From contig CAWBTT010000004.1 of assembly GCA_963791815.1 (NCBI GenBank), positions 130,215 through 194,214 of the forward strand: a stretch of 64,000 nucleotides of DNA, in the 5' to 3' direction. The position numbers and the translations under genes were made by a program. Every line of letters starts with the position of its first letter. Position 1 is the stretch's first letter. Positions 2,871 through 30,830 of this stretch are shown piece by piece. This stretch comes from an uncultured Candidatus Micrarchaeota archaeon (lineage in GTDB: Archaea; Micrarchaeota; Micrarchaeia; Anstonellales; Bilamarchaeaceae). Under the pieces are notes generated by a model. It was not told where the DNA came from. It searched no databases and saw only the letters and a list, made by a program, of their open reading frames with translations.

Positions 2871-3185
2871 ATGGTTAGAAAAGAAGAAATCCTGGAGAAA
2901 CTTTCCCAGGTCATAGACCCTGAACTCGGCCTTAATATCGTCGATTTGGGGCTTATTTATGAAATTGACATTAAAGAAAAGAAAAAAGATGAATTGCAAA
3001 AAGTATTTATCAAAATGACATTTACAACGCCTGCATGCCCGCTTATGGGAGAAATGATTGAAGAGGTTAAACGCAAGCTGGATGAACTTCCGGAACTTGA
3101 TATTGAAGTAAACATAGTCTTCGAGCCTCTTTGGAAACCAGAAATGATGAGCGAACGAGCAAAGGCGAAATTGGGAATAATATGA
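2871..3185 (+). CDS. Fe-S assembly protein, MIP18/DUF59 (SufT-like)
   Basis: VIDPELGLNIVDLGLIY and MTFTTPACPL motifs are typical of DUF59. Length 104 aa. Confidence 0.7.
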   Translation: MVRKEEILEKLSQVIDPELGLNIVDLGLIYEIDIKEKKKDELQKVFIKMTFTTPACPLMGEMIEEVKRKLDELPELDIEVNIVFEPLWKPEMMSERAKAKLGII

Positions 3186-4480
3186 AATTAACATTTTACG
3201 GAGGTACGCAGGAAGTTGGCCGTGCGTGCATGCTCCTTGAAGACGGGCCAAAGAACATAATGCTTGATTGCGGAATCAAGCTTGGAGAAAAAACAGAATA
3301 CCCTCTCATTAAAGATGAGGATTTGTTGGGTGTGCAGAATGTGACAATATCTCACGCACATCTTGACCATTGCGGCTATTTGCCAAGGTTTTACGCCAAA
3401 AAGGCGAGGCCGAAGATATTTCTGACAAAACCGACAAGGGACCTGATGGGTGTTTTGCTCTCGGATTTCTACAGGATAATGAAACTGAAGGGTGAGAAGC
3501 CCATATTCACCCTCAAGGACATTGAGGGGGTGATGCGCGAGGCTCACATGTGCGAATACAGGGAACCTGCGAACAATGAATTTAGGAGCATATTCTTCCC
3601 TGCAGGGCACATAATGGGAAGCGCGATAACCTCAGTTGAGCGGTATGGAAAACGAGTAGTTTTCAGCGGAGACATCTGCATGCGCAAGACCAGGGTGCTG
3701 GATGCTTGTGAAAAGAATCTGAGCGCCAATACGCTTATTGTTGAAAGCACATATGGGGGCAAGGATGACAGTCTGCCAAGCTACAAGGAAAGCTATCAGA
3801 AAATGGTCAAAACCATCAACAGGACATTGGACCGCGGCGGGCATGTAGTAATACCAAGTTTCGCAGTTGGCAGGGCTCAGGAAGTCCTCATGGCTTTAGA
3901 TGATTATATGCGCTCAGGCTCGCTGCGGCCTGCCAAAATCTACATAGAAGGCATGATAGGCAAGGCAATGAAGATTTACCGGCACAACGCTATTTACGCC
4001 AATGATGACATCAAAAGAAGAATCCTCATGAGTGAGGATGACCCTTTCAAGAGCCCCAATTTCTACAAATCAAGGTCAAAGACAAGGGAGGATGTTCTTG
4101 AAGAGCCTTCAATCATAGTAACCACTTCTGGGATGCTGAGCGGAGGGCCTGTGATGTTCTATCTTGAGAAGCTTGGCCCAGACCCCAAGAACACCCTTAT
4201 TTTCGTCGGGTACCAGGCCGAAGGAACACTTGGCAACAAGGTCCAGAACGGGCAGAAGGAAATACGGATTGGAGAGAAAGAGATCAAGCTGAGAATGGAA
4301 ATTGATAGTGTCAAGATATCCGGCCACGCAGATTTCAATGAGCTTCTCCAGTTCATAAAGTCGTTCAAGGGACTGCGAAAAGTTTTCCTTATGCACGGGG
4401 AGAAAACTGACCTGAAGGATTATCTTGAAGATGACTATGAGGTAATAGTGCCTAAACAGCTAGAAACTCACAACATCTAA
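3182..4480 (+). CDS. beta-CASP metallo-beta-lactamase-fold ribonuclease (aCPSF2/RNase J-like)
   Basis: MKLTFYGGTQEVGRAC start, HAHLDHCG metal motif, and C-terminal ISGHADFNEL and LMHGE motifs. ATG 3182 overlaps the stop of the preceding gene (ATGA). Confidence 0.7.
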   Translation: MKLTFYGGTQEVGRACMLLEDGPKNIMLDCGIKLGEKTEYPLIKDEDLLGVQNVTISHAHLDHCGYLPRFYAKKARPKIFLTKPTRDLMGVLLSDFYRIMKLKGEKPIFTLKDIEGVMREAHMCEYREPANNEFRSIFFPAGHIMGSAITSVERYGKRVVFSGDICMRKTRVLDACEKNLSANTLIVESTYGGKDDSLPSYKESYQKMVKTINRTLDRGGHVVIPSFAVGRAQEVLMALDDYMRSGSLRPAKIYIEGMIGKAMKIYRHNAIYANDDIKRRILMSEDDPFKSPNFYKSRSKTREDVLEEPSIIVTTSGMLSGGPVMFYLEKLGPDPKNTLIFVGYQAEGTLGNKVQNGQKEIRIGEKEIKLRMEIDSVKISGHADFNELLQFIKSFKGLRKVFLMHGEKTDLKDYLEDDYEVIVPKQLETHNI

Positions 4481-4506
4481 TTAGAAAAATAGAGAAAAAG
4501 AAAAAA

Positions 4507-6594
4507 CTAGGAGTACTCCCAGCAGTCAGGTTCAAGTATGCTGAATGGAAGCGAGCAGCTGTGCGATGAATCGCCATCAACATACGCGTATATGGTTCCA
4601 GACTGGTATGGCTCCCCGGTGATATTGTAGTATGTTCCTGAGTCTGTTCCTCCCGAGACCCCCACATAGCCTGAGGCCGACCAGGTCACGTTTGCACATG
4701 GCTGATCAGCGTCCGGCCCGCAGTTGATGTTGACCCATCCGAATGCACCAGGATAAGCGCTGAATGCCCCATCCCCGATGGTACACCATTCGCTTGAGCC
4801 ATCGTCGTCATCATCGTCATCAGAGCCGTTGTCATCGCCTCCGTCGCCTATTTCAATCGGCGCAAGTGCGATTGCTCCAAGAATCGGGTCGTCTGCAGGG
4901 TTGTTCCAGTAGGCATAGCCAAGGAGGTTCCCTGTGCTGTTTGCGCCTGCTGTGAATGTTGTACCGTCAGTGCTTGAGTTGCCTGTCGAGCCGAGAAGGC
5001 CGTCTATGTTGTCATAGTCAGCATCATCCGGAGTGGACGGGTTTCCATCTTCGAAACAGTTGAGTTCGAAATATTCAGACTCGCCAGTTTCCATCGAAGC
5101 GCTTGGCGGGACGAACTCGCACTCATAGTGAATTGGAGTTGTCACAGAAACATCCGAAAGGCAGTGCGCTATTCCTGACTCGTAGTTCATCGTCCCGGTT
5201 GTGCCTGGAGATGAGGTTGGATAGGCAATTGCGTGCGTATTGTCCCTCTCGATGAATCCGCCTGAGATTGCGTCCCAGTACCAGTTGTTTCCAACACATG
5301 ATATTGGGTCTCCTGCAAGGTCCTCGCAAGCGACCTCGAACTCCGCTACTTCGAGTGTTCCAAGGTTAAGTGAGCTTGGGTCGATTTCGCATGTGATTGC
5401 ACCAGTAAGCGAAACTGAGTCACTGCACGATGAGGCGCCGCCGCATGCAGATGAGACTGTTGAGGCTGAGAAAGATAGTACTGTTCCGCCGGATGCTCCG
5501 GGGTTTCTCTGGACAAGAACGTATAGGTCCTTGTTTCCTCCTGGACCGATAGATTCACCGAATCCGTTGGAGCTTGGACAGTCTGAAGGCAGGAATCCCA
5601 GAGTAGTACTGCAAAGTGAGACTGGAAGCGGGTCAACATCATAGTCAAGGTTTGAGCCTGTGACGCCATTGATGGTGATGTGGTCTCCGCTGTTATGCTC
5701 TCTGACGATGACCATCATTAGGTCTTCATCAATTAATGATTTTTTGGCAGTCACTGAAACCTCGTTGAAGTTGCAGCTTCCACCTGCATCCTGGACTGTA
5801 AGTGATATCGTGTCAGTAGCAATTGACGGGCCTATTAAAGGCTGATTATCTGTGAAGTAATATAGCCTGAACCAGAGTGAGCTTGTTTTCTGAAGCGGGT
5901 TCTTTGCCAAAGCAGCAATACAATCGACATCCTGGAGCCTTGTTTTTACCTGGTATGAGCCAGAAGAACTCACTGTGAATGATGGCGAGGGAATCGAAGG
6001 CATGGCCGAGCTTCCGCCAGGAACAACGCTACCTCCACCAAGGACCTGATAGGTTCCTTTACAGAACACATTGCCCTCACCTCTGCGGTTGGCAAAGGTT
6101 CCGCTCAAGTTATGATAAGTCACTGGCTGGTAATGAAACGTTGCCAAATCATCATACCTTGATGTGTCCTGTGTCAATAGATTGCCATCACCAAATGTAT
6201 TATGATCAGTGTACTGCGACGATGTAATCCATTTGATATTCCTGTTAGTATTTGTAGTTGAATAACTGATAAATGTCGGACATCCACCTGTCGGACACTC
6301 TGGGAATAAGGAATCGATATCCAAACTTGATACTGCCCATTTGGAGTTCACTGACGGGTTGACATTGAGCGTTGCGCCACTGCAGATGACATCCCCGGTC
6401 TGGAGATTACTCGGATTTCCGCTAACGACATCGCCTGAACTGGATGCGCTCAAAGTGAAGTCAGTAGTGAACTGCATGTTGGTGTTGAAGTGATAAGGCT
6501 CACCAACATAGTTCTGGAAATTTCCAGGGACACTAGTAGCGAACGCAAATGCGCCAAAAAAAATCAAGATTGAAAAGAGTGTTTTGTACATCAT
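4507..6594 (-). CDS. secreted Cys-rich Ser/Thr/Gly/Asn/Asp-rich surface protein (orphan)
   Basis: Canonical signal peptide MMYKTLFSILIFFGAFAFATS, preceded by GAGGT 4 nt upstream of ATG 6594. Repeated Cys-bracketed beta-like modules and a poly-Asp tract (DDDDDDD). The ORF opens further upstream and overlaps the stop of gene 6602..8578. Confidence 0.6.
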   Translation of the reverse strand: MMYKTLFSILIFFGAFAFATSVPGNFQNYVGEPYHFNTNMQFTTDFTLSASSSGDVVSGNPSNLQTGDVICSGATLNVNPSVNSKWAVSSLDIDSLFPECPTGGCPTFISYSTTNTNRNIKWITSSQYTDHNTFGDGNLLTQDTSRYDDLATFHYQPVTYHNLSGTFANRRGEGNVFCKGTYQVLGGGSVVPGGSSAMPSIPSPSFTVSSSGSYQVKTRLQDVDCIAALAKNPLQKTSSLWFRLYYFTDNQPLIGPSIATDTISLTVQDAGGSCNFNEVSVTAKKSLIDEDLMMVIVREHNSGDHITINGVTGSNLDYDVDPLPVSLCSTTLGFLPSDCPSSNGFGESIGPGGNKDLYVLVQRNPGASGGTVLSFSASTVSSACGGASSCSDSVSLTGAITCEIDPSSLNLGTLEVAEFEVACEDLAGDPISCVGNNWYWDAISGGFIERDNTHAIAYPTSSPGTTGTMNYESGIAHCLSDVSVTTPIHYECEFVPPSASMETGESEYFELNCFEDGNPSTPDDADYDNIDGLLGSTGNSSTDGTTFTAGANSTGNLLGYAYWNNPADDPILGAIALAPIEIGDGGDDNGSDDDDDDDGSSEWCTIGDGAFSAYPGAFGWVNINCGPDADQPCANVTWSASGYVGVSGGTDSGTYYNITGEPYQSGTIYAYVDGDSSHSCSLPFSILEPDCWEYS

Positions 6595-6601
6595 AAAAAC
6601 C

Positions 6602-8578
6602 TCATTCATCCTCAGTTCTTCTCGGGGTAGCCCTTCGAACTGAACCCTCGGTTGGCGATGGCCTGAAGAACTCTCCAATGTTGAACTGAAGGTTCAGTCC
6701 ACCGAATGGAGTTCCTGGAAGCCTGTCGACTTCCTCTCCGCCGACCTCGCCAAGGTATCCTCCGCGAAGGTCCACCTGGAACATTCTGCGGTATGAGTAG
6801 CCAAGTCCGAGATAGCCCTCAAATGTGTGGACCGTGTTCCCGAAGTTGTAATCATACCTAAGGCCAGGGCCCGCAAAGAAGCGGTGCTGGCCTTCCTCAC
6901 CAGCATAAACTGAAAGGTTGAGCGGTCTAATGTCCCCGCCTACCCTGTGCTGCCTGAGGAAGTATGAGTACTGTGGCGTGATTGTTGACTGGAGTCTTAC
7001 ACGGTTCCCTTCCATCCAGTTGCCCTCCATTGTTATGTAGGCAAGGGGATTCATGAGTACTCCGGTTGTGTCTCCTCCTGGTGCCTGCTCAAGCGTTGGA
7101 ACCACGCCAAGACCGACCCTTGAGAGCCTGACTATTCCGCGGTTTCCTTCTTGGCCTGGGAATCTGACTTCAACGCTTGTCAAACCAAGCATCGCACCGG
7201 AATCTCCGACTTCAAGCGTTTCGGTTGAGCCGTCTGTCATTGCAACTTGCCCTGACATGCTCCACTCCTGATGCGGAATCACTGTTGCGCCAATCACGAT
7301 TTCCATTGGTACTGCCCAGCTCTCTCCGCCGACACCTGTACCGATTGCAATTTCTGGCCTCAAACCAACTGAATGGCCGGTGCCAGAAAGCCTTGTCCTT
7401 CCGACGGTTCTAAGTTCCTGAGTCTGCGGGTCGACCTGAAGCTGCTGGAGCTGTCCGCTCATTGCAAGGTATTCATAGTACAATCCAAGTGAAGTCCAGA
7501 TGAACCTCGGCTCAAAGCCGCCATGCCGTGTTCCTCTCATATACTCCTGGAACGCCTGCATGTTCTGGTCGAACTCGTATCGGACCGTTACTCCTGCTCT
7601 GAAAATCGCGACTGCCCTCTGGTTAACTGAAATGACATAGAGGTTGTTCAGCGACTGGAAAATACTGTTTAGGGTTGACTCACCAGCAAGTGACTGAAGA
7701 CCGCCTGAGAGGTCTCCTGACTGCAATTTTCTCATCGCATCCTGGAACCCTGGCCTCTGCCAGATTTCTCTCTCAGATGGAATCGCGCTCAGCGCGTTGA
7801 AAAGCGCTGTCGCAGCCGTCCTCAGTGCTGCTGCATCATTTGGATGGTTTGCAAGTACTGCGTAACCATTTGCAATTGCGTTGACACCTGCCTGTGCTGC
7901 TGCCTGATCCCCAAAAATCGCGCTCATCTCAAGACCCGGAGTCGCGTTGATTGCAACGACTGATTCCTGGCTGCCACGGCTCAGCAGTGTAATGTTACCA
8001 AGGTCATGCATTGGCACTTCAATAATTGGAAGCGCGGTTGCCCTTGCCGCTTCGTCAACTTCCCTTGGGCCTGTCTGGGCGTCTGTTGAGACACCTTCAG
8101 TCACGCCAAGAAGAGCTGTAAGCATAGCAAGATGAGAAGCGAATTCGCTGTATCCCTCTTCGTCAGCTGATGCCCCTCTGCTAATCCTCTGGAGCATTGT
8201 CCTGAATGCGGTTGCATTGTCTCCAAGAGCTGCTGCATCCTGCGGCTGAAGTTCCTGAAGCCTCTGCAGTGAAGCAACAAGTGCCCTCTGGGCATAGCCA
8301 AGTGCGCCTTCGCGTCCTTCGCCTTCTCCAAGCCTCACGATTGCCTGATCATAAACCCTCCTCATAGGGTCGCTTTCAGCCGGCCGCCCACCAAGAAGAA
8401 CCTGGTGAATCTGCGCGATTCTGAGCGAGTTGTTCACCGAAGCTCTCGCTGTCGGTGCCCTTGACGGATGGGTAGGCCTGTCTGTCCTACCTGCAATAAT
8501 GTCCAAAAATCCTACTAACTGGTCTGCTGAATAGAGACCCTGTGATTCAGTCGGTGTTTCCCGTTGCGCCTGTGCCAT
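6602..8578 (-). CDS. orphan 658-aa protein: helical N-terminal half, beta-strand-rich porin-like C-terminal half
   Basis: Long ORF with GGGGTGA 6 nt upstream of the ATG. Only one Lys in 658 residues. The C-terminal ~300 aa are alternating amphipathic Gly/aromatic-rich strands ending in GGLNLQFNIGEFF. No family recognised. Confidence 0.6.
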   Translation of the reverse strand: MAQAQRETPTESQGLYSADQLVGFLDIIAGRTDRPTHPSRAPTARASVNNSLRIAQIHQVLLGGRPAESDPMRRVYDQAIVRLGEGEGREGALGYAQRALVASLQRLQELQPQDAAALGDNATAFRTMLQRISRGASADEEGYSEFASHLAMLTALLGVTEGVSTDAQTGPREVDEAARATALPIIEVPMHDLGNITLLSRGSQESVVAINATPGLEMSAIFGDQAAAQAGVNAIANGYAVLANHPNDAAALRTAATALFNALSAIPSEREIWQRPGFQDAMRKLQSGDLSGGLQSLAGESTLNSIFQSLNNLYVISVNQRAVAIFRAGVTVRYEFDQNMQAFQEYMRGTRHGGFEPRFIWTSLGLYYEYLAMSGQLQQLQVDPQTQELRTVGRTRLSGTGHSVGLRPEIAIGTGVGGESWAVPMEIVIGATVIPHQEWSMSGQVAMTDGSTETLEVGDSGAMLGLTSVEVRFPGQEGNRGIVRLSRVGLGVVPTLEQAPGGDTTGVLMNPLAYITMEGNWMEGNRVRLQSTITPQYSYFLRQHRVGGDIRPLNLSVYAGEEGQHRFFAGPGLRYDYNFGNTVHTFEGYLGLGYSYRRMFQVDLRGGYLGEVGGEEVDRLPGTPFGGLNLQFNIGEFFRPSPTEGSVRRATPRRTEDE

Positions 8579-8584
8579 TTTTAG

Positions 8585-8740
8585 TCACCCCAAAGTGAAT
8601 GCTAATGGTATAGGAGCCTCGAACTTTAAAATATGCTCCGGTGACGCAACAAGAGCCGCCAGACCAAATGCCGCTGCCGCGCAAACCTTCTTTGCCCGCG
8701 TGACAATCCCATTTCGTTTTTCATTGTGTCTGAGTTTCAC
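8585..8740 (-). CDS. candidate 51-aa membrane or secreted peptide
   Basis: GTG start 7 nt downstream of a perfect AGGAGGT. Translation: (M)KLRHNEKRNGIVTRAKKVCAAAAFGLAALVASPEHILKFEAPIPLAFTLG. The stop lies 6 nt before the ATG of gene 6602..8578. Below the ORF-track size cutoff. Confidence 0.35.
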   Translation of the reverse strand: MKLRHNEKRNGIVTRAKKVCAAAAFGLAALVASPEHILKFEAPIPLAFTLG

Positions 8741-8786
8741 TTGTCATACCTCCTTCTGTCCTTGAGCGAATTGCCCAAGCTGTTTT

Positions 8787-8806
8787 ACAGGGGAGAAATC
8801 CCCTGT
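8787..8806 (-). promoter_or_regulatory. perfect 8-bp stem / 4-nt loop hairpin in the intercistronic spacer
   Basis: acagggga-gaaa-tcccctgt lies 36 nt downstream of the stop of the 1335-aa gene and upstream of the small ORF. Function unknown. Confidence 0.3.
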
Positions 8807-8841
8807 TCCATCCACCCTTGTTTTAGTATAAAAAAGAAATA

Positions 8842-11800
8842 TTATCTGGAACGACGAGCCGCTGCTGTCGGTGAAGTGCTCCTTGGTGATACGATTACCA
8901 CCGGGGTGCTCTCTCCGACCACGTAGGTCCAGCTCTGGTTGTGATCTGTCGGAGCGCAGACTGATTCCATATTTCTGCGGAATCGTTCGTCACGTACAGG
9001 CTCGAATCCACTGGTGCCCTCTATCCTGAAAAGCACATCAGAAGGCCTAACACGCTGTCGACCGTCCATAACAGGAACCCACTCGCGTCCGCTTGTTGGG
9101 CTTTCTCCTGAAGGCCTAACACGAACGACTGCCCTGGGGATTACTGTCCCATCAGTCAAGGTTACATTGTTAATAACCTGGCCGATGTGAGAACGTCTCC
9201 TGGCTTCTATAGTACTTGTCGGGTCATACTGCGGATTCCTAAGATACTGGGTTATCTGCCCATCCTGGTCGCGCCTTCCGAGGTTCTGATATACGAACCA
9301 GTAGTAGGTCAGGTTGACTGTCCTCTGGTGCTGTCTCTGATACCTCCTGTGGAAGTCTGCGAAGCTCATTGTGTCTCCGTCCGCTTCACGGACCATGACC
9401 TGCTCTGCAGTGAATCTTACCCTGCTTGATGAACCCCTAGAGTATCTCTCCTGCTCAATGCTTGTCCTTGGAACGTAGAACGAAAGCTGCGCAAGGTCGT
9501 CTGTAAGCCTTCCCTGCTGCTCTGGGTCTGGGAATCGGCTGAGGATGCTATCATCAAGGCTTGCGATTGCGAGTTCTGCTGTTGCAATTGCCAATCTTGG
9601 GTTCATGCGCCCAGTGAAAAGGTCGCTGCCCCTGTCTCTGTGAAGCGCTCCGCGCAGTGTTGTAAGCAAACGCTCAGCCTCAACTGCCCGAGTTACATAC
9701 ATTACTCTTGGGTCGCGGCTTCTTGCAAGGTCCCTTCTTGCGAACCTTGTTCCGCTTGCGACTGCGATTTCACCGTCCAATCTTGTCCTGAGTTCTCCAA
9801 GCCTTGTATCTAATATAGATATAAGCTGGCCGTTTGCTGATGCAAGTGTCTCAGTTGGCGTTGCAGTTGCGTATCCCTGTGAAATCTGCCACATCCTGCT
9901 CCGGAGTGGTGCTGGATCAATTGTCCTAAGCCACTGCGGGGTCTGCCCATTGCCCCGGAGAATCGCAAGTCTGTAAAGCTCGATATAAAGGCTTCCATAC
10001 TGGGCAATCCTCATATCCTCCTGAGGATTGCTTCCAAGGTTGGCATCGCCGCCAGTATTTGGCTCAGGAACGATGTGCTGGTCAACTTCTGAAACAGAAG
10101 TTCTTCCCCTTCCTGTGCTTCCCCTGAGTATCGGATGTCCACCTCTCTGTATTGGTTCGGTGGGATTACGCCCGACTGAAGGCTGCAGTAATGCGAATGC
10201 CCTTCTTGATGCGGCGTCCCTTGACCCGTAAGCTGAAACCGCGAATCTGGGTGTGCCTCTTACTCCAACAAGAAGTCTGAGGAACCTCTCTTCTGCCAGT
10301 TGTGCGGCCTGGGCTCTTTCAGCATCAGTTGGATTGGCAATATCAGCAACAGTAACTTCCTGTGATGAAGGCGATGCGTATGCCTGGTTTGTCGCTATTG
10401 TTGCAGGCGATTCAAGAACCCTGAAAGTAGCAGGCGCAAGAGCGTTGATTGCTGCATCTGCTATTGCTCCTGATATGTTGGGGTGGAAACCTGAATCGAC
10501 TTGCGGTGATGAGAAGCACCATACGAATGCCTGCTGTGCCTGCTGAATCATTGCATCGGCACGGCCAAGCCTTTCCTGTGAAAGGTTTGCCCGAATTGAG
10601 CTGGTTGACCTCCAAAGCTGAGCCTCACGGATTGAAGCGAGACTGAGTGCCATGTAATATAATGTATCAGACATCTGCGGAACCTGCGCCACGTCCACAG
10701 TTCCCTGAGAAGCTGTAATCCAGGCATTTGCCGCCTGAATCATCGGGTCTGTTGCTGGAAGTCCTGAACCAGTTACAACTTCCTGCAGAGAACTCCTTGC
10801 AAGAGTGAGCCGGGCAGTGCCTTGAAGCTCTGCCTCACTAAGAGGCTGTGGCGGATATGCTGCCATATCAAGCGCGAGCCGGTACCTTGCATACTCGTAG
10901 CGGATGTTGGGCCTGAGCCTCCTCATTGTCGCCATTGTCCTTATTGAAGATGAAACTGCACTAGGCGCTGCCGGGGCGAGTCTTGAAACTTCCAGGTAAA
11001 GCTTGTGCAAAACATCCTCATACCTGAAATCCCGGTTTCTCATAAGGGCAGGCAAAAGTTCAGTTTCTGCACGGCGCACCTGGGCATCTGTAATTGGAAC
11101 CCCGGTATGCCTAAGATATGCCCTTGCCATACTGCGCCTTGTGCCTGCAGTATAAAGTCTGTAAGGAATGAAATCTGAATCAAGCAATGTTGAGACTGCA
11201 TTTGCATATGCGGTCCTAAGCTGGATTCTTCTTGGAGTATCAAGGCCTGCTATGTTCTGCCCCCTTGTGAATTCCCAAAGGTCCACAACTGCGCGGATGA
11301 CCTGTTCTTCTGATACAACTGACTCATAAAGTTCATTGACAAGATGGTATGAGAGAGAACCTCCCCCCTGCGCACCCTGAAGAACCTGCCTTGCACGCGT
11401 AAGCCTTTCTTCCATTGAGCTTCTGATGTCTTCCCTTCCGGTACGGACACGGCGAAGAACTCTTGTGCCATCAGCATTTCTTACAGGTACATAATCATAG
11501 GTTCCCCTGCTCTGGCCATCAGCCCTTGCCGCTGCCGCAACCTCTGCTCTTGTTGGAAGGTGACTTCCATCAATTGCCTGGAGAGATGCCTGCGCGATTG
11601 GAACAACAAACTGCTCGAGCCTCTGGCGCATGAGCTGCTGCTCCTGGGTAAATATTGTATTGGCTGCTGTGAGTTTTTCCCTGGCAAGAGTTTCGTTGCC
11701 CGCTCGAATAGCATCGCGTGCCTCACCAATTCTTGTAACCATGCGTGATGCTGGACTTTCACCAAGAAGAAGCGCATCGTTAAGCCTTCCGATAAGGTTG

Positions 11801-12849
11801 TTTGCAAGATTTCTCCTTTCCTGTGAAACTGACTGGTCTGCTGCGACCGCCTGAAGGTCTGTAAGTATTGAGGTTACCCTCTGCGAAAGAGGATGTGCCG
11901 CTGCAGTGTCAACACCAGGAATATCGGTCATCCTTGCCTGTGCTGCTCTTGTCTGGGACCGTGCGAGTTCACTTGAAACTACACGTTCTGCTGCTGTGAC
12001 AAGCCTTGCAAGCTGGCGTTCCCTTGGGCCGCCGGTCCTGTTAAGTTCTGCATTCAATCTGGTAAGAGCCTGCTCAGCGCTCCTTCGAACGCCAGCATTT
12101 CTCCCATAATTAGAAATTACTTCAAGATTGTCGCGAAGCTGTCCGTGCTGCGGCGCTGCTGCAACTGCGGGTTCTGGCTGCGCTTCAACTCTCGCTGGAA
12201 CGGTTTCCCTTGCTGATGGTCTTTCAGTAGGTGCTGCAACTGGGGCAGGTGCTACTGTTGGCTGCGGGGTTGCCTGCGCGAGAACTGGGCCGACAGACGA
12301 ATCAGCCGATGGGGTGCCGAGCGCTGCCATGACCCTCTGCTCAAGAAGTTGAAGGCCTGCTGCATCGAGTGCCGCATCCCTTCCTCTTCCGAGCCATGTA
12401 TTCATTGAGCGGAATTTGTCTCTGTCTGTTGAACCTGAAATTGGAATGACTGCCTGGCCGCCGTTTGATGGGCGAAGCCTCTGGTCAAGTTGAACCAAAG
12501 CAGCAAGAAGTCTTCTCACGTTCGCATCAGTATAAGTAACCTGCACTGGTGTGATTCCCGCTTCCTGCATCTGGGTGAATGTACCCCGAATTGCAGTGAA
12601 ATGAGTAGTGAGATTTTCATAAGCCTGTTGTACTGCCCTAACATCTACCCGTGACTCTTGCGCATGCGCCTCTTTCATAGCCGGTTCTCCCATAATAGCA
12701 CCCATAAAACTCGCGACAAAAATTGCGCGATGGAAGAACCTCTTAACGGCTCCCCCAGTACCTTTTCTGTTAGTAGAATTTAAAGGTTCTCTATGGCGGC
12801 GATTCTCGTCTTTCTGTTCAGCAGAATAATTTAGTTTTGGACCTCCCAT
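8842..12849 (-). CDS. orphan 1335-aa Ala/Arg/Gln/Leu-rich, predominantly helical protein with N-terminal hydrophobic anchor
   Basis: Uninterrupted 4-kb ORF. KRFFHRAIFVASFMGAIMGEPAMKEAHA resembles a signal or anchor segment. A Pro/Ala linker follows (TPQPTVAPAPVAAPTERP). Eight Lys in total, five of them in the first 59 residues. No family recognised. Confidence 0.6.
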   Translation of the reverse strand: MGGPKLNYSAEQKDENRRHREPLNSTNRKGTGGAVKRFFHRAIFVASFMGAIMGEPAMKEAHAQESRVDVRAVQQAYENLTTHFTAIRGTFTQMQEAGITPVQVTYTDANVRRLLAALVQLDQRLRPSNGGQAVIPISGSTDRDKFRSMNTWLGRGRDAALDAAGLQLLEQRVMAALGTPSADSSVGPVLAQATPQPTVAPAPVAAPTERPSARETVPARVEAQPEPAVAAAPQHGQLRDNLEVISNYGRNAGVRRSAEQALTRLNAELNRTGGPRERQLARLVTAAERVVSSELARSQTRAAQARMTDIPGVDTAAAHPLSQRVTSILTDLQAVAADQSVSQERRNLANNLIGRLNDALLLGESPASRMVTRIGEARDAIRAGNETLAREKLTAANTIFTQEQQLMRQRLEQFVVPIAQASLQAIDGSHLPTRAEVAAAARADGQSRGTYDYVPVRNADGTRVLRRVRTGREDIRSSMEERLTRARQVLQGAQGGGSLSYHLVNELYESVVSEEQVIRAVVDLWEFTRGQNIAGLDTPRRIQLRTAYANAVSTLLDSDFIPYRLYTAGTRRSMARAYLRHTGVPITDAQVRRAETELLPALMRNRDFRYEDVLHKLYLEVSRLAPAAPSAVSSSIRTMATMRRLRPNIRYEYARYRLALDMAAYPPQPLSEAELQGTARLTLARSSLQEVVTGSGLPATDPMIQAANAWITASQGTVDVAQVPQMSDTLYYMALSLASIREAQLWRSTSSIRANLSQERLGRADAMIQQAQQAFVWCFSSPQVDSGFHPNISGAIADAAINALAPATFRVLESPATIATNQAYASPSSQEVTVADIANPTDAERAQAAQLAEERFLRLLVGVRGTPRFAVSAYGSRDAASRRAFALLQPSVGRNPTEPIQRGGHPILRGSTGRGRTSVSEVDQHIVPEPNTGGDANLGSNPQEDMRIAQYGSLYIELYRLAILRGNGQTPQWLRTIDPAPLRSRMWQISQGYATATPTETLASANGQLISILDTRLGELRTRLDGEIAVASGTRFARRDLARSRDPRVMYVTRAVEAERLLTTLRGALHRDRGSDLFTGRMNPRLAIATAELAIASLDDSILSRFPDPEQQGRLTDDLAQLSFYVPRTSIEQERYSRGSSSRVRFTAEQVMVREADGDTMSFADFHRRYQRQHQRTVNLTYYWFVYQNLGRRDQDGQITQYLRNPQYDPTSTIEARRRSHIGQVINNVTLTDGTVIPRAVVRVRPSGESPTSGREWVPVMDGRQRVRPSDVLFRIEGTSGFEPVRDERFRRNMESVCAPTDHNQSWTYVVGESTPVVIVSPRSTSPTAAARRSR

Positions 12850-13089
12850 TTAGCCATCCTCATTTAACATTACTATATACTATTTGAAACAAATGATTTA
12901 AAAACCATTGTTTTCCACTTTTCACTATTTTTCGGATTGTTTTTATGACTGTTTCAAACACAAAAGAATGATTACTATAAAATGCCTAATAGTGTTTAAA
13001 AAAGGTGGCTTAAGAGCGGAATTGAAGGAATCCCAATAAAAAACGTATTTTACTACAGAATACAAGTGAGATTTTCTAAAAAATCAAAA

Positions 13090-13926
13090 ATGCCCAGTTT
13101 TCGTGATGCAGGAGTGAGGAAACCATTTTGCAAAGCAGTGGTATTACTTTCATTCGTCTTCTCCTGTGGGGAAGCCGCGCATGAACCCATAGGGCAAAGA
13201 CCGGTCCGGGAAGAAGCAAGGCAGGTTGAGATAGAAGATGACTGCCTGGATAGGTATTTTGATTCTGACATCTCACCACCACTTTCTTTTGGAAAGGGAC
13301 TTGGCAGGGACAGGAGGGTCCGCGAAATGCGAATGGAAGTGGAAGATTTGTATTCAAAAATGAGACGAGGTTCTGAAAGCGCCGAATATTATGCAGAGTT
13401 TTTCAGCAAAGCCAGGCACTCTAATGGAGATTTGATGTTCCCAGGTGCTGCAGATGTTATCAGTGGAAATGTTTTCCCGAATGCGAGTTCCAAAAGGTTG
13501 GCTGGAAGAAGAATGGCAAAATCAATGAGAACAACAAGATTCCCAAATGCATATGCGCTTCTAAATTCAATGCCGAAAACAGCTGTTGTGCTCGTTGACA
13601 GGGTGAATCGCCCTCGAAGCGGAATGGATGTTGAACATGCAGAAGATATCGCTGGTTTTTTCCGCGCGCTGCTTGGATTCCAAAACAGGATGGGCTCTGA
13701 GCAGGAACTCTGTGATTTCCAGCCGAACATGAGCAGAGAGCAATTGAATGAATTTGATTCATATTATTCTAATAAGATATTAAACTGGAATAATCCAGTA
13801 ACAGGAAAACGAGTTTGTACTAATTGCAAGAAGTCAATCGAAACGGGAGATTTTGAAAGATTCGGATTGACAAGGTTTCCTGACGGAATGGAAGCTGCAT
13901 TCTGCAGACAAATAGAAACAGATTAA
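13090..13926 (+). CDS. putative lipoprotein (orphan)
   Basis: KPFCKAVVLLSFVFSCGE signal with lipobox-like Cys. C-terminal CTNC...C cluster. The ORF opens at GTG 13066; ATG 13090 is preferred. Confidence 0.5.
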   Translation: MPSFRDAGVRKPFCKAVVLLSFVFSCGEAAHEPIGQRPVREEARQVEIEDDCLDRYFDSDISPPLSFGKGLGRDRRVREMRMEVEDLYSKMRRGSESAEYYAEFFSKARHSNGDLMFPGAADVISGNVFPNASSKRLAGRRMAKSMRTTRFPNAYALLNSMPKTAVVLVDRVNRPRSGMDVEHAEDIAGFFRALLGFQNRMGSEQELCDFQPNMSREQLNEFDSYYSNKILNWNNPVTGKRVCTNCKKSIETGDFERFGLTRFPDGMEAAFCRQIETD

Positions 13927-13950
13927 TATTTCACAGTATAGTTGTGGGAC

Positions 13951-14646
13951 ATGTACAGACGATATTACTATTCGGTTCCTTATCAGTCGATAAAAAAAGC
14001 AAAGAAGTTCGCAACCAGGATGAAAAAATCCTGGGGCGCCAAGGTCAGTGCAGAGAAGAGGCAACTAACTGGGGTAGTAATGAAGAAGGGAAGCCGGGCA
14101 AAGAAGGTCACAGTAGTAACAAGTTATGATTTTGAAGTGGATAATCTTAGAGAGCTTTATGATAGCGAGATGCTAAATGGCCACCTTGATGCGCGTGCTC
14201 ATAAAGTAAAGAAAAATTTCGACATTAGAAGTTTGGTTAAAAAAGATTTGAAAAAATGCCTGAAGGAAGATGAGAAGCTGGAGCTCAGTTGTCCTTTAGA
14301 AGCTATGAACATTGTCAGAAAAGCAGTCGGACTTAAGCCTTTGGCAAAGGATTTCTTTGGAAAAAGGAAGGGCATGGAAATACTCAGGGTTTTGGCAAAG
14401 AAATCAAAAATAGAGACATACAAAATTGAGAAATTGTCGACGATGAACAAAGCCATGGTCCAGATACTCAAAGTTGGGAAATACAAAAAGAAGAAAGGCA
14501 CTCTGGCCATTACTGTTGAGTTCAAGAACAAGGTAAAGTTTGTCCAGGTTTCAAAACTGATTATGGAGAAATTCAGAAACATAGAAACTATCGAGAAAAT
14601 GGATTATCCCACAGGGAAAGGAATCCTTATTGTTGCAAAATACTGA
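13951..14646 (+). CDS. Lys-rich hypothetical protein
   Basis: Open frame in an AT-rich segment. Very basic K-rich sequence with no motif recognised. The ORF opens at TTG 13942; the first ATG is at 13951. Confidence 0.4.
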   Translation: MYRRYYYSVPYQSIKKAKKFATRMKKSWGAKVSAEKRQLTGVVMKKGSRAKKVTVVTSYDFEVDNLRELYDSEMLNGHLDARAHKVKKNFDIRSLVKKDLKKCLKEDEKLELSCPLEAMNIVRKAVGLKPLAKDFFGKRKGMEILRVLAKKSKIETYKIEKLSTMNKAMVQILKVGKYKKKKGTLAITVEFKNKVKFVQVSKLIMEKFRNIETIEKMDYPTGKGILIVAKY

Positions 14647-14720: not shown

Positions 14721-14763
14721 GAAGTTTTGTGCACTTTTAACATGAGCAGAACAGAAGGAAAAG

Positions 14764-14847
14764 TGCAAGGGAAGAGATTCGAACTCTCGAACGGACTAAC
14801 CGACCAGGCCCTGAACCTGGCGCCTTTGACCACTTGGCGACCCCTGC
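14764..14847 (-). tRNA. tRNA-Leu (anticodon CAG), no intron
   Basis: Reverse complement is GCAGGGGTCGCCAAGTGGTCAAAGGCGCCAGGTTCAGGGCCTGGTCGGTTAGTCCGTTCGAGAGTTCGAATCTCTTCCCTTGCA. It folds as a cloverleaf with a long variable arm and anticodon loop TTCAGGG. Confidence 0.9.
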
Positions 14848-14905: not shown

Positions 14906-16141
14906 CTAATCCTCAGCCTTTGCAAACTCAACCGGCTGCCTTGTGTATGCCCGTGTTCCGGAAGGAACGTTCTTGTTTATTGAAACTCCGGAGTGAATCC
15001 AGCAGTCCTTCCCGATTATTTTTCCTGGCATGGTGCAGGAGAGCACGCCGAATTTTGTGTTGTCCCCTATTATTGCCCCGAGTTTTTTCCTGCCCGTATT
15101 CACCCAGCCTTTTTCAGTAAGCACATTGATGTATCCTTCATCAAAACGGAAGTTCGCAATCTGGGTGCCGGAGCCGAAGTTGACATTTTCGCCGATTACA
15201 CTGTCCCCGATATATGTGAGGTGTTTGGCATTTACATTGTCAAAGAGGATACTGTTTTTCACTGTCGAGCCTGCGCCGATTGAGCAGTTTCTCCCTATTG
15301 AGTTGAAACCGCGGATATATGCATTCGGGCCAATCACTGTTCCTTTTCCTATGTATGAGCAGCCCTCAACATAGCTGTGGGTAATTTTTGCCCCTTCTTC
15401 CATGATTACTTTGCCGTTTATTGTTGAGTTGTCCACCGCTCCGGACTGCGACTCAAGTTTCTGAAGAAGGAATTCATTAGCACCAAAAAGATCCCATGGA
15501 TATCCGATGTCTCTCCAATAGCCATCTACAACTACCGCAGTTGAACCGACAAGAATATTTGTAAGCTCATATTCTCCGCGCTCAGATTTCCCGACTGATT
15601 TCAAATCATTCAAGGCAGTTGGCTCCATACAGTAAACAGAAAGGTTTGCAAGGTCAGTTTTCGGGTGCTGTGGTTTTTCCTCAAATAAACTCACTTTCCC
15701 CCCTGAGATTTCAACAACTCCATATTCCCTAGGGTTCTTCACTTTCTTTACCGCGAGTGTGATGCGGCCTTCGCGTCCTTCAATAACGCTCTTGATTACC
15801 GCTGACTCTGTGATTGTATCTCCTGCTAGCACGACAAAAGTATCATTGAGTTCGGATTCTGCGCAAAGCAGCGCTGTTCCTGTCCCTTTCTCAGGACCCT
15901 GCTCAATGAATTTCAGCTTGATTCCCAAATCAACTTCTGAGAAGTAGTCGATGATTTTTTCCTTCATGTACCTGACTATTATGAGCGCTTCGCTGATTCC
16001 GGCTTTCTTAGCTTCTACCAAAAGATGGTGCAGGATTGGTTTTCCTGCGACATAGAGCATTGCCTTTGGCCTCGTAAGTGTAAGAGGCCGGAGCCGCACC
16101 CCCTCGCCTGCTGCCAGAATTACTGCTTTCATTAGAATCAT
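14906..16141 (-). CDS. bifunctional sugar-1-phosphate nucleotidyltransferase/acetyltransferase (GlmU-like, N-terminal NTP-transferase plus left-handed beta-helix)
   Basis: KAVILAAGEGVRLRPLT nucleotidyltransferase motif. C-terminal hexapeptide repeats (IGDSVIGENVNFGSGTQI and others). Confidence 0.8.
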   Translation of the reverse strand: MILMKAVILAAGEGVRLRPLTLTRPKAMLYVAGKPILHHLLVEAKKAGISEALIIVRYMKEKIIDYFSEVDLGIKLKFIEQGPEKGTGTALLCAESELNDTFVVLAGDTITESAVIKSVIEGREGRITLAVKKVKNPREYGVVEISGGKVSLFEEKPQHPKTDLANLSVYCMEPTALNDLKSVGKSERGEYELTNILVGSTAVVVDGYWRDIGYPWDLFGANEFLLQKLESQSGAVDNSTINGKVIMEEGAKITHSYVEGCSYIGKGTVIGPNAYIRGFNSIGRNCSIGAGSTVKNSILFDNVNAKHLTYIGDSVIGENVNFGSGTQIANFRFDEGYINVLTEKGWVNTGRKKLGAIIGDNTKFGVLSCTMPGKIIGKDCWIHSGVSINKNVPSGTRAYTRQPVEFAKAED

Positions 16142-20889: not shown

Positions 20890-21029
20890 GCCGCAGTAGC
20901 TCAGTGGGAGAGCACTCCAGGTCCTTTTTTGTAATTAAAAAAAGAACCGGTGAAGCTGAAGTCTCACTGGGGGTTTAGTTCCCAGTTTCGGAAACGGAGG
21001 GGTCGCTAGTTCAAATCTGGCCTGCGGCA
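20890..21029 (+). tRNA. tRNA-Phe (GAA) with two introns: exons 20890..20918, 20955..20961, 20994..21029
   Basis: The joined exons give GCCGCAGTAGCTCAGTGGGAGAGCACTCC-GCTGAAG-ACGGAGGGGTCGCTAGTTCAAATCTGGCCTGCGGCA. This is a 72-nt cloverleaf with anticodon arm CTCCG/CTGAAGA/CGGAG. Both introns lie in BHB-type structures. Confidence 0.85.
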
Positions 21030-27967: not shown

Positions 27968-28067
27968 GGGCCCGTGGCTTAACCTGGATATAGCGAGTGG
28001 CTTCGGAAGCCTTCTCCAAATCGCTGGAGAAACCACTAGGTTAGGGGTTCGAATCCCCTCGGGCCCG
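27968..28067 (+). tRNA. tRNA-Arg (TCG) with canonical 25-nt intron (28007..28031)
   Basis: GGGCCCG...AGTGG CTTCGG | intron | A CCACT AGGTT AGGGGTTCGAATCCCCT CGGGCCC G. BHB: CTTC pairs with GGAG; the bulges are GG|A and AA|A. Confidence 0.9.
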
Positions 28068-28070
28068 ATT

Positions 28071-29069
28071 CTAATTAACTTCAGAGGTCAGATAGAGATG
28101 GTTCCGATAATGCATATGGTCTTTTACCATTATCTCAAGACCGCTGGCAAGATAGAACGCTCCTCTTGAAAACATGGAAATCTGGTCATCAATCAGGTGT
28201 TCGGGAAGTTCATCGGCATGAACTCTTAGAGAGGCTGCTGCAAGAAGAGAATACGTTTTCGTCATTTTTGATTTTAAGAAATCGAGCGCCCTTCCAATGT
28301 ATGGGCTCTCTGGCCAGTGCCTTCCGCATTCGAAAAGCGAATCACCCATAAGTTCAACCATGCGGTGCACCTCATCCTCAGGCGGATACTCCCCCTCAAT
28401 CTGCATCATGGCAATCGTCCTCTGGGCAAGAAGCCTTGCCGTGTTCTCAGCTGCCATGGCATGGGTTGCTCCGAGCATCGCCATGTCGCTTATGAGCTCC
28501 AGGGTATGCATGGGCGGGGGGATTTGCGAAAGTGATAGGATTGCAAAGGGGCTCTCCTCAATCCCCATTATGGCAAGGACAGGCTCGAATTCCTCATGCC
28601 CGATTATCGCGAGCGCAGGGTAGCACTCAAAGCCGTTCCTGCGCAGCAGTGATGTTGCAAGCATGTAGGGCTCAAGGATATGTGTGAATGAAATGGAAAG
28701 GTGTCCTTCCCTCGACTCGCCGCCAAGGATTGAGCCTGCTGTTATCGGGAGCTCTGAAAGAACGACTGAATCGTTCATTGTAAAGGAACTTTTATCCGTG
28801 ATTGCCTCTGCTGTTTTTTCTACAAACTCCATCCTGGATGAGCTCATCCTTAGGATGTGTCCGCAAAGCCTTCCAACAATTCCCCCGCAATCAGAATATG
28901 GGCCTTCCTCAAGAGGGATTGCGTATTTTCGCAGCTCTTCTGAAGCAGCGTCCATGCTGGTAAGAACATGGTGCTTGCCAGCCATTTTTGTCGGGTCAAG
29001 AATCCTGCTGGGGCTCTTATTATCGAATACGATTCGCCGGAGGTTTATTCTTGATGTTGTTGTCTGCAT
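28071..29069 (-). CDS. orphan protein, partner of the HExxH protein
   Basis: 332-aa ORF, 9 nt downstream of gene 29079..30830. Its stop lies 3 nt from the tRNA-Arg 3' end. No motif recognised. Confidence 0.5.
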   Translation of the reverse strand: MQTTTSRINLRRIVFDNKSPSRILDPTKMAGKHHVLTSMDAASEELRKYAIPLEEGPYSDCGGIVGRLCGHILRMSSSRMEFVEKTAEAITDKSSFTMNDSVVLSELPITAGSILGGESREGHLSISFTHILEPYMLATSLLRRNGFECYPALAIIGHEEFEPVLAIMGIEESPFAILSLSQIPPPMHTLELISDMAMLGATHAMAAENTARLLAQRTIAMMQIEGEYPPEDEVHRMVELMGDSLFECGRHWPESPYIGRALDFLKSKMTKTYSLLAAASLRVHADELPEHLIDDQISMFSRGAFYLASGLEIMVKDHMHYRNHLYLTSEVN

Positions 29070-29078
29070 TCGAACATC

Positions 29079-30830
29079 TCAGTGCATTATCGGTTTGGGC
29101 TTCTGGCCAGTATCTTCAAGCAGTCTGCTGAGCCTCGCCTTCCAGGGCTCTTCCATTCCAGCATACCCATATTCATTTAGTATTGAGGCTGTTGTCACTG
29201 CGATTGGACTTCCCCCTCCGAATACGCTCAGGCTGGAGAGCATTGTACTTGCTATCGCATGCCCAAGTGCGTATTCCATGCTCGCCCCGGGAGTGGTTGT
29301 AAGCGTGATTTCTGCCCCCCAGGAGTTTCCAAGGAGGTTGTTTGACAATTCAGTATCAGTTGGAGATACTGGAAATTCCCTTAAAAGATGAGCGTATATC
29401 TCGCTGACTTCGGCTGGTGCCACCTCATACATAGCAAGCTCAGTGATGCCGCGGATTGCCCATTCCCTCATCCTGGTCCCATCAAGGAATTTAGATGTAA
29501 GATAGACCAAATTGTGATCTTCGGGTGTGAAACTTCCAAGTTCCGATATTGCTCTCGAATCAGATATCAAAGCCTCAACAGTTATTGCCATTGCTTCTCT
29601 GAATGCTTCAGTATCTGTTTTGTAGAATCTGGACCCATCATTACGGTCCATCCCATCATAGTGAAGTATGTGTCCAGTCTCATGTGCAAGCGCCGCGAGA
29701 TACTGCCTTGGGTCCTGCTTTGTGCCTGGATTCACTCCGGCAACATAATCCCGGACCCCTTTTCCAAACCTGAGCGCGCCCTCCTCTGCCCCTGCTGCTG
29801 GACTGAGCTCAAGCGATACGAAGTGCGGCGCATCACCAAATGATTTGAGGTCCAGGTAGGGTTTTCCATTAACTTCACCAAAGAATCCGCACATGTCCAT
29901 AATGTGCTTGAAGAAGCCAAATGAGCCTTGAAGCGATTGCGGATAAACTTCAAGAACTCCAGATTGCCCAAGGAACTGGCTAACTAGCCGATAATCATTG
30001 AGCGGGCTTGGTTTCACTCCAGCTGCTCTCCCAATCTCATCAAGGAATTCGCCTAGGTTTTTTACAGAATTTAAAAGAGTGACAACCCTATCCTTGAATT
30101 CGGCGGGGCTAAGCTCGTTCCTTCCAAGCACCACATCAGCAAAGGTCTTGACATCCATGCCAAGCTCTTTGCCAGCCTCTCTGGAAATCTGGTTCGCGAC
30201 TCTTGCGACATTGAACGCGATTGGTTGAAGCGTTGCTGATTGCCTCAGATACTCCATATACATTGCTCTTGAGATTACAGGTTCACTATCACTCATTGAC
30301 TGCCATGCTGTCATCAAATCGGCCTTTGCCATGGTCTGGCCTGAGAATTCATAGCGGAATGAGATGAGTTCTTTTGACGCTGCTTCTCGCGCCTCGAGCA
30401 GTTCTGGATTGCGGGCAACTGCCAAGTAGAGCAGTTCCCTGCGCCGGACATCCACCTCGCGCTTTTCTGCCGGGGTGCTGGCTTCAATTGCTGCTGATTT
30501 GAGTGCTCCGTAATAGTCCAATTTTTTTGGAAGCTCGGCAAGCTCTTTGCCAAGCCCCACTATTTCATCATAGCTTGCTGCGCCGTGCCAATCTGCCCAT
30601 ATGAGCCTTTTCTGTTTCTCTGAAAGTTCTGCTTCCAAAGAATCAAATGCCTCAAGCTTTCCTCTTGTGCTGTTTGATATCCCTGACCCGGGTTCTGGTT
30701 TCAATTCGTCTGTTTTTGGTTTTGCCCCACTGAACTCGGCTCCCCTTTCTTTCTGCAACCCAGCTAGGCGTGCCATCCTCTCTCTAACTGATAATTTTTT
30801 TCCTGCCATTGGACCACGACGATTATTCAA
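29079..30830 (-). CDS. putative gluzincin-type zinc metallopeptidase (HExxH)
   Basis: LAALAHETGHILHY with Glu residues 24-27 aa downstream (TEAFREAMA) fits an HExxH...E site. The remainder is unrecognised. Confidence 0.5.
   Translation of the reverse strand: MNNRRGPMAGKKLSVRERMARLAGLQKERGAEFSGAKPKTDELKPEPGSGISNSTRGKLEAFDSLEAELSEKQKRLIWADWHGAASYDEIVGLGKELAELPKKLDYYGALKSAAIEASTPAEKREVDVRRRELLYLAVARNPELLEAREAASKELISFRYEFSGQTMAKADLMTAWQSMSDSEPVISRAMYMEYLRQSATLQPIAFNVARVANQISREAGKELGMDVKTFADVVLGRNELSPAEFKDRVVTLLNSVKNLGEFLDEIGRAAGVKPSPLNDYRLVSQFLGQSGVLEVYPQSLQGSFGFFKHIMDMCGFFGEVNGKPYLDLKSFGDAPHFVSLELSPAAGAEEGALRFGKGVRDYVAGVNPGTKQDPRQYLAALAHETGHILHYDGMDRNDGSRFYKTDTEAFREAMAITVEALISDSRAISELGSFTPEDHNLVYLTSKFLDGTRMREWAIRGITELAMYEVAPAEVSEIYAHLLREFPVSPTDTELSNNLLGNSWGAEITLTTTPGASMEYALGHAIASTMLSSLSVFGGGSPIAVTTASILNEYGYAGMEEPWKARLSRLLEDTGQKPKPIMH

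Follow-up and report, generated by a model that had tools for sequence, protein, structure and literature searches.

We analysed a 64-kb stretch of DNA (the window) from an uncultured Candidatus Micrarchaeota archaeon in which four open reading frames (ORFs) lie one behind the other on the minus strand; all positions given for this cluster refer to that strand. The first ORF encodes a protein of 1335 amino acids (aa) that we call the giant (8842–12849, ATG start), followed by a micro-ORF of 51 aa (8585–8740, GTG start), an ORF of 658 aa with the working name p658 (6602–8578, ATG start) and an ORF for a Cys-rich protein (4507–6678). Realistic start codons of the latter are ATG 6609 or, better, ATG 6594/6591, which show a GAGG followed by 5 nucleotides (nt) upstream, and the preferred extent of the gene is 4507–6594, corresponding to ~695 aa. 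The four ORFs were all located at the positions that an earlier reading of the sequence alone had claimed for them, and so were a hairpin, the ribosome-binding Shine-Dalgarno (SD) motifs and the junctions of stop and start codons. This sequence-only reading had recognised no family for any of the products, and the database searches agree with it: scans against Pfam, NCBIfam and PHROGs gave no match for any of the four, searches against PDB sequences with single sequences as well as profiles returned nothing below E = 0.01, and no description of the cluster or its proteins was found in the literature library that was searched.

The ATG of the giant is preceded at a distance of 7 nt by the SD-like motif GAGGA (12857–12861), and GAGGAT-GG is kept at this place among the orthologs. 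Immediately 3' of the giant stop codon an oligo-T run is found (TATTTCTTTTTTATAC, 8826–8841), and the spacer of 101 nt between giant and micro-ORF also holds a hairpin with a perfect 8-bp stem and a 4-nt loop (ACAGGGGA-TTTC-TCCCCTGT, 8787–8806) as well as the SD AGGAGGT (8748–8754), from which the micro-ORF GTG at 8740 is separated by 7 nt. The minimum free energy (MFE) of this spacer is -29.9 kcal/mol, which is more stable than that of shuffled sequences (z = -3.0), and in the MFE fold the oligo-T run pairs with the micro-ORF SD. The hairpin is present with a shorter stem in two close relatives (loci L015 and L016) and not in distant loci. At the next junction, GGTGA-CTAAAA (8579–8589), the TGA of the micro-ORF (8585–8587) is part of the archaeal SD GGTGA, leaving a gap of 6 nt (CTAAAA) to the p658 ATG at 8578. 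In ATGAATGA (6602–6609) p658 ends within an ATG of the Cys-rich ORF, the two codons overlapping, and the GAGG at 6600–6603 doubles as SD for ATG 6594. Adjacent or overlapping junctions between these two genes were also observed in L001, L011, L014, L016, L017 and L018. Same strand, kept order and adjacent or overlapping stop and start codons with an SD are therefore combined from the micro-ORF to p658 and from p658 to the Cys-rich gene. From the giant to the micro-ORF, with 101 nt and a T-run in between, the junction is not a tight one, and the translationally coupled four-gene operon proposed in the sequence-only reading had to be narrowed to the other two junctions.

Using tblastn and gene tables we found the order giant, micro-ORF (where present), p658 (one or two copies) and Cys-rich gene in at least 15 Candidatus Micrarchaeota loci. 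It is present in every locus retrieved, including L018 with a p658 that is only ~28% identical to that of the window. The sequence-only reading had hinged on such conservation, and the order is indeed kept phylum-wide and not unique to this assembly. In most loci, even in the very distant L002 and L018, the cluster is flanked by genes for a sugar-1-phosphate nucleotidyltransferase (14906–16141, minus strand, in the window) and a β-CASP nuclease (3131–4480, plus strand), both belonging to the archaeal housekeeping genes, and thus this synteny block is unusually stable for such fast-evolving genomes. L011, L016 and L017 show the same cluster order next to different flanking genes, so the linkage belongs to the cluster itself. 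Homologues of p658 originate solely from Candidatus Micrarchaeota metagenome-assembled genomes and unassigned metagenome contigs, and a full HMMER scan with the family profile yielded 106 representative clusters, all named ones being Micrarchaeota. The same taxonomy was obtained for at least 41 homologues of the Cys-rich protein, and the eight close homologues of the giant all derive from metagenomes or Micrarchaeota. A metagenome scan with peptide patterns, which were too specific, added one extra locus. Judged from this distribution, the cluster is restricted to Micrarchaeota and vertically inherited.

The encoded proteins and their export signals

The Cys-rich protein (pI 4.05) starts with a classical signal peptide, MMYKTLFSILIFFGAFAFATS, and contains 21 Cys; 16 Cys are invariant among 37 aligned homologues. 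A poly-Asp linker (residues ~585–597) leads to a small Cys-rich C-terminal domain with the conserved end ...EPDCWEYS, and the C-terminus shows no transmembrane (TM) segment or sorting motif. The AlphaFold2 model built from 37 sequences has a predicted local distance difference test (pLDDT) value of 87 and consists almost completely of β structure, arranged as tandem β-sandwich domains of the immunoglobulin (Ig)-like type. Foldseek assigned 266 PDB matches at E <= 0.001 to this model, the leading ones (E 1e-12 to 1e-7) being titin, contactin, cadherin, invasin and the surface-layer (S-layer) proteins EA1, SbsB, Sap and SbsC, and it also matched phage Ig-domain proteins in BFVD (Hoc-like, tail). 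An export signal and tandem Ig-like domains come together in this protein, which according to the model has a generic architecture of the extracellular adhesin or S-layer type. The secreted, adhesin-like product of the sequence-only reading was thereby found again as a disulfide-rich protein with signal peptide and tandem Ig-like fold. The Cys-rich protein is of the Ig-like surface-protein type, and the families of the giant and of p658 are true orphans of one phylum.

The giant (147 kDa, pI 10.1, Arg 11.8%) has a basic n-region of 40 residues, a weak A/G-rich h-region and AHA|QE at its N-terminus, which includes the only hydrophobic segment of the protein. The long basic n-region, the A/G-rich h-region and the motif A-x-A-Q-[DE] are conserved in the orthologs and shared with signal-peptide-bearing (SP-type) paralogs of p658. 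Instead of the N-terminal membrane anchor that had been proposed from the sequence, this region looks like a long cleavable signal peptide with its A-x-A-Q-[DE] motif. It is followed by a P/A/T-rich linker (residues ~190–235). By a crude propensity index, for which the modelled proteins p658 and Cys-rich served as calibration, the body is helix-leaning up to residue ~1140 and the C-terminal ~190 aa are β-leaning. No relationship between giant and p658 was detected with hhalign. In L006 a separate small ORF upstream of the giant (3926–4525) resembles the C-terminal domain of the giant alone (31% identity, residues 1126–1317).

The protein p658 (pI 5.3, Arg 8.1%) starts with MAQAQ and has neither a signal peptide nor a TM helix. 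Its N-terminal half is helical (residues ~15–300) and its C-terminal half forms an amphipathic β-meander (~310–635), followed by a charged 20-residue tail after ...NIGEFF with no terminal aromatic β-signal. In the AlphaFold2 model (11 sequences) the pLDDT was mostly 78–93 for residues ~20–160 and 54–87 for residues 200–300, and the β half was predicted as ~15 long antiparallel strands with a pLDDT of ~40. A Foldseek search with this model gave no match at E <= 0.001, porin or other, with TM-scores of 0.1–0.2; the best match to an outer-membrane protein (OMP) had E = 0.014 and a TM-score of ~0.1–0.2. OMP barrels and large lipid-transfer proteins are frequent among the non-significant matches, but with a pLDDT of ~40 this is not evidence. 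Mean-field direct coupling analysis (mfDCA) of 87 p658 sequences was noisy and revealed neighbouring hairpins only, with no signal for barrel closure. A Pfam search with 74 family members at E <= 1 detected no recurrent family and no OMP family, and one member showed an isolated weak match (E = 0.005) to a family that we take to be an outer-membrane β-barrel. Significant similarity in sequence or structure to porins, a Sec signal and a C-terminal β-signal are all missing in p658, so the porin-like or barrel-like protein of the sequence-only reading could not be established. Among ~100 representatives the family is separated into two classes, the majority being MAQ-type (MAQxQ start, no signal) and the other SP-type. 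Short family members of 350–430 aa are composed of signal peptide and β-domain only, from which it follows that the β-domain functions outside the cell.

The micro-ORF shares its reading frame with p658 and is separated from it by a single TGA (junction in the window: GGTGACTAAAAATG). It shows a K/R-rich n-region starting with KLRH, a 14-residue Ala/Gly-rich h-region (VCAAAAFGLAALVA), the sequence LVA|SPEH and a conserved tail (SPEHILKFEAPIPLAFTLG). From these features the product looks like a signal-peptide-like module and not like a stable TM helix. What had been described as a membrane micro-protein is instead such a module, in frame with p658 and fused to it in four loci, and in its 3' half it overlaps with a conserved DNA block of promoter-like character described below. 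The split arrangement recurs, with the same junction GGTGACTAAA[A/T]ATGGCNCAGGCGCAA, in L002, L014/15, L016 and the distant L018. In L004, L006, L009 and L013 the module is the N-terminus of p658 with no stop codon in between, and these fused loci still hold the Met of MAQAQ together with the GGTG(A) SD. No micro-ORF exists in L003, L005, L007, L008 and L011, in which a paralog with its own long signal peptide lies ahead of p658, and just a remnant without the hydrophobic core was found in L007 and L017. An intact signal module and an SP-type p658 paralog are mutually exclusive across 15 loci, and a signal-bearing partner lies ahead of p658 in all loci examined, be it the micro-ORF, the fused module or the SP-type paralog. 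Apparently, the need for one signal-bearing and one signal-less p658 copy is served in three interchangeable ways, namely by a mini-gene with its stop codon in the ribosome-binding site of the gene that follows, by in-frame fusion or by a paralog, which is a curiosity in its own right.

Nearly all p658 orthologs examined (split, fused or paralog-preceded) have GGTG(A) 5–7 nt ahead of ATG-GCN-CAR-GCN-CAR, the exception being the second p658 copies of L003 and L005, which show the SD and another start. As far as this conservation tells, p658 is translated from its own SD and ATG (MAQxQ) and carries no signal peptide. A general recoding of UGA, as a sense codon or for selenocysteine, was considered for the junction and rejected, because TGA is an ordinary and common stop codon here (19 of 54 long ORFs of the window). 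The signal-bearing partner would deliver or tether p658, which has no signal of its own, to the outer side of the membrane. This could proceed via a fused isoform, arising through internal initiation in the fused loci or low-level UGA-CUA read-through in the split loci, via the mini-protein or the paralog acting in trans, or via folded co-export. The arrangement is similar to the hitch-hiker export of the twin-arginine translocation (Tat) pathway as known from the small and large subunits of hydrogenases, as the signal-less p658 is always encoded beside a signal-bearing partner.

An extended signal peptide, seen for example at 8690–8740 and 12700–12849 in the window, is common to two unrelated families (the giants and the SP-type p658 paralogs) and to the micro-ORF. 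It is made up of an N-terminal (K/R)LRH, an n-region of 20–45 residues, in many cases [KR]RF, then a weak A/G-rich core and finally A-x-A-Q-[DE], and may represent a lineage-specific targeting signal. Being long and weakly hydrophobic, with a basic c-region residue and often [KR]RF at the n/h boundary, these signals show Tat-like traits. However, the twin arginine is not conserved family-wide in the signals of the giant, the SP-type p658 and the micro-ORF, although [KR]RF is frequent, and the Pfam Tat-signal model at E <= 10 matched none of nine such N-termini nor the Sec signal of the Cys-rich protein as tenth query. Despite the suggestive features we therefore did not assign these proteins as Tat substrates.

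Promoter-like elements inside and upstream of the cluster

A conserved promoter-like DNA element of 53 nt, GTGGAAAACAATGGTTTTTAAATCATTTGTTTCAAATAGTATATAGTAATGTT, is located upstream of the giant (12866–12918) and ends 17 nt ahead of its ATG. It is AT-rich and holds GTTTCAAATAGTATATAG and the TATA-like TTTTTAAA. The element is near-invariant in 13 loci (L002–L007, L009, L011, L013, L015–L018), the giants of which are only 28–35% identical, and is thus more conserved than the proteins of the cluster. It occurs a single time in the window, and the nine loci that a shorter exact sub-pattern picked out likewise hold one copy each. No consensus RNA structure was found for the 53 nt, so the constraint acts at the DNA level, and the pattern of conservation suggests a strongly constrained promoter or operator. 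A related GGGTGGA(AAA)..TGG motif recurs in the spacer between giant and p658 of several loci.

Another conserved DNA block, GCGTCACCGGAGCATATTTTAAAG...CCATTAGCATTCAC (8595–8646), lies inside the micro-ORF, ~50 nt upstream of the p658 ATG, and is TATA-like as well. It is still present in L007 and L017, in which the ORF is broken or no longer encodes the hydrophobic core, and the third codon positions of CCATTAGCATTCAC are invariant. As the 3' half of the micro-ORF (…GGAGCATATTTTAAAG…CCATTAGCATTCAC) is kept even in broken ORFs, its conservation is probably in part that of an internal promoter, and we regard the block as a candidate promoter inside the cluster that would serve p658 and the Cys-rich gene. 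The oligo-T run behind the giant resembles an archaeal terminator or a TATA box, this function being predicted. The TATA-like sequences at 8826–8841 and 8595–8646 speak for further sites of transcription initiation. A single transcript for the whole cluster is doubtful, and the arrangement of these elements suggests that the giant on the one hand and p658 with the Cys-rich protein on the other are expressed differentially and not from one uniform transcript. Expression would be set by the strong promoter at the head of the cluster, by partial termination behind the giant and by the internal promoter in the micro-ORF, and ribosomes terminating on the giant would unmask the micro-ORF SD that is paired with the oligo-T run.

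A putative surface assembly and competing explanations

Giant and p658 are also found within one polypeptide in three proteins, all from metagenomes. P0120 (1717 aa) matches the giant profile over positions 141–1112 (hidden Markov model E = 3.5e-39) and then that of p658 (E = 2.5e-16), with the p658 part replacing the C-terminal β-domain of the giant. P0159 (1559 aa) shows the same fusion pattern in a weaker form, and P0161 (1597 aa) is a fusion of a giant-like and a p658-like part. Furthermore, all three large proteins of the cluster are nearly devoid of Lys (giant 0.6%, p658 0.2%, Cys-rich 1.4%) compared to 8.5% Lys and 5.2% Arg in housekeeping proteins of the same window. The depletion is seen in many, not all, of the orthologs (among P0053–P0059, P0001–P0011 and P0012–P0047) and suggests a common selective environment; that Lys is almost wholly replaced by Arg in a set of surface proteins is a further curiosity of the cluster.

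We read the three proteins and the signal module as parts of one lineage-specific, secreted and envelope-associated assembly, with the Ig-like protein exposed and giant and p658 bound to each other, and we would give this proposal, which draws on comparative sequence data, an even chance of being correct. The basic, Arg-rich giant and p658 would be the partners of this binding, and the acidic Ig-like protein would form the exposed outer part. Most likely, the cluster encodes a surface or adhesion structure of episymbiotic Micrarchaeota, the role in envelope architecture and/or host attachment being the least certain step, and we rate it among the archaeal surface-protein operons. Several observations weigh against such an assembly. 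The own product of p658 has no export signal, for which reason its extracellular location rests on comparative logic, and the description of the giant as helical comes from the propensity index mentioned above and not from a structural model. The oligo-T run and the internal TATA-like elements suggest more than one transcript. Homology to any characterised surface system was not found, and none of the components has a membrane anchor, an archaeosortase signal or an S-layer domain, as the S-layer domain models (PF05123 S_layer_N / MSTP-like) in Pfam and NCBIfam were unmatched by all four products. The known S-layer protein of Micrarchaeota, SLP_Mh, is defined by PF05123/TIGR01564/TIGR01567 (bioRxiv 10.1101/2021.04.28.441871), and as this is a different family, the S-layer has an explanation that does not require the cluster.

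The genes might also be neighbours only and not build a single apparatus. The Cys-rich protein and perhaps the giant would then be secreted, the MAQ-type p658 would be cytoplasmic or membrane-peripheral with an unrelated role, and the micro-ORF would be no more than what is left of an ancestral signal peptide, in decay and overlapping with the p658 promoter. The own conserved SD and ATG of p658 and its lack of a signal peptide, which is the majority state among the ~100 representatives, would be in line with this, as would the T-run, the internal TATA-like elements and the fact that where the micro-ORF is conserved it matches a DNA block kept even in broken ORFs. However, the n- and h-regions of the micro-ORF are intact exactly where an SP-type paralog is absent and decayed where one is present, in-frame fusions are tolerated in four loci, and the β-domain is located behind signal peptides in paralogs and short homologs. 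The giant-p658 fusions likewise place p658 behind the export signal of the giant, and neither deep divergence nor a change of flanks has altered the gene order; we consider mere neighbourhood to be unlikely. Hardly credible is the idea of an integrated virus or other mobile element with the cluster as its structural module, coding for example for capsid, spike or receptor-binding proteins. Its GC content of 51–52% compared to ~45% nearby, the orphan nature of its proteins and the many phage Ig-domain proteins matched by the Ig-like protein in BFVD could be taken as hints, but the GC shift is explained by the Arg/Ala-rich and Lys-poor protein composition and the BFVD matches concern generic Ig-like domains. 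With housekeeping genes on both sides, a chromosomal position between nucleotidyltransferase and β-CASP nuclease that is kept down to 28% p658 identity, and no integrase, terminase, capsid or other match in PHROGs, a viral or mobile origin was rejected, the conserved position and the PHROGs result being decisive.

A more far-reaching explanation sees in p658 a single-chain porin-like β-barrel pore, inserted in a second envelope layer or in the host membrane, which together with the giant and the Ig-like adhesin would form an envelope-spanning or cell-to-cell conduit by which metabolites or lipids of the host are taken up. The C-terminal ~330 aa of p658, predicted as ~15 long antiparallel strands with strict hydrophobic/polar alternation and rich in Gly and aromatic residues, would suit a barrel, and several of the neighbouring hairpins are backed by mfDCA. 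OMP barrels and lipid-transfer proteins dominate the non-significant Foldseek list, Micrarchaeota are host-dependent episymbionts, and the cluster proteins avoid Lys. Lys avoidance is also known for proteins that must survive inside another cell. On the other hand, the β half was modelled with a pLDDT of ~40 and found no Foldseek match at E <= 0.001, no OMP family was assigned to the 74 members apart from the one isolated hit, barrel closure is not detectable by mfDCA, and p658 lacks both the terminal aromatic β-signal and a signal peptide of its own. Moreover, cultured Micrarchaeota were reported to have an S-layer and not a second, outer membrane, and the single co-culture imaged showed intercellular nanotubes that arise from the host. 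We judge this pore to be rather improbable. Should the β-domain of p658 nevertheless form a barrel in a membrane, archaea would for the first time have a porin-like protein family of their own. Bolder still, and in our eyes a long shot, is a host-contact machine with the Ig-like adhesin outermost, the Arg-rich giant as scaffold and p658 as a single-chain amphipathic β-barrel or β-sheet that inserts into the membrane of the cell itself or of the host and moves lipids or metabolites. Here p658 would deliberately be made in exported and non-exported form, either by the split signal peptide with its UGA inside the SD (read-through or re-initiation), by fusion with internal initiation or by duplication. 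The pore, and the envelope-spanning or cell-cell contact apparatus proposed in the sequence-only reading, stay an inference, and the secreted, envelope-associated assembly stays our preferred reading.

Among known systems, slaA-slaB of Sulfolobales is comparable to such an assembly, as adjacent co-oriented genes encode very large, lineage-specific, fast-evolving and secreted envelope proteins and one component is assumed to fix the other to the membrane. In contrast, there is no relationship in sequence or fold, no component of the cluster has the C-terminal TM helix and coiled-coil stalk of SlaB, three proteins plus a signal module are involved, and Micrarchaeota already possess a different S-layer protein (PF05123). 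S-layer proteins are also normally Cys-poor, unlike the Ig-like protein with its 21 Cys. Intimin and invasin, bacterial inverse autotransporters with a β-barrel anchor and an Ig-like (Big) adhesin array, similarly combine a β-rich module with an exposed Ig-like chain, invasin (1cwv) being matched by the Cys-rich protein in Foldseek with E = 3.4e-8, and long "extended" signal peptides are present in some autotransporters. In the cluster, however, β-module and Ig-like array are located on separate polypeptides, the barrel is putative, sequence homology is absent, and the organism has no known outer membrane or β-barrel assembly machinery (BAM). The SPEARE proteins of Nanohaloarchaeota are large orphan secreted proteins of one DPANN phylum with a suspected role in host interaction. 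The cluster proteins, too, are large, orphan, secreted and limited to one DPANN phylum, but they are much smaller than SPEARE proteins, lack protease, nuclease or adhesion Pfam domains and show a different architecture in a fixed three-gene operon.

Micrarchaeota and other DPANN archaea rely on physical contact with their host cells, and we know of no protein behind this contact that has been identified in Micrarchaeota. The cluster provides a short list of candidates, as it is both phylum-wide and phylum-restricted and one of its components has an adhesin-like fold.

Further features of the window

Rfam at the gathering threshold identified tRNAs only in the window, namely four genes at 14763–14847 (minus strand), 20890–21029 (plus strand), 27968–28067 (plus strand) and 44699–44808 (minus strand). 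Three of them are 100–140 nt long, contain introns and were missed by ARAGORN; the introns mark the window as archaeal. Divergent from the giant, two ORFs of 286 and 234 aa (13066–14646, plus strand) have no match in Pfam, NCBIfam or PHROGs and are not conserved beside the cluster at other loci. Two more ORFs, of 332 and 583 aa (28071–30830, minus strand), show no family in Pfam, the database used for them. Fic/DOC-domain proteins are encoded at 43177–44529 (minus strand) and 52586–53920 (plus strand), and the latter gene, located in the segment of the window with the lowest GC content (52–54 kb, 37.6%), may have been acquired horizontally.

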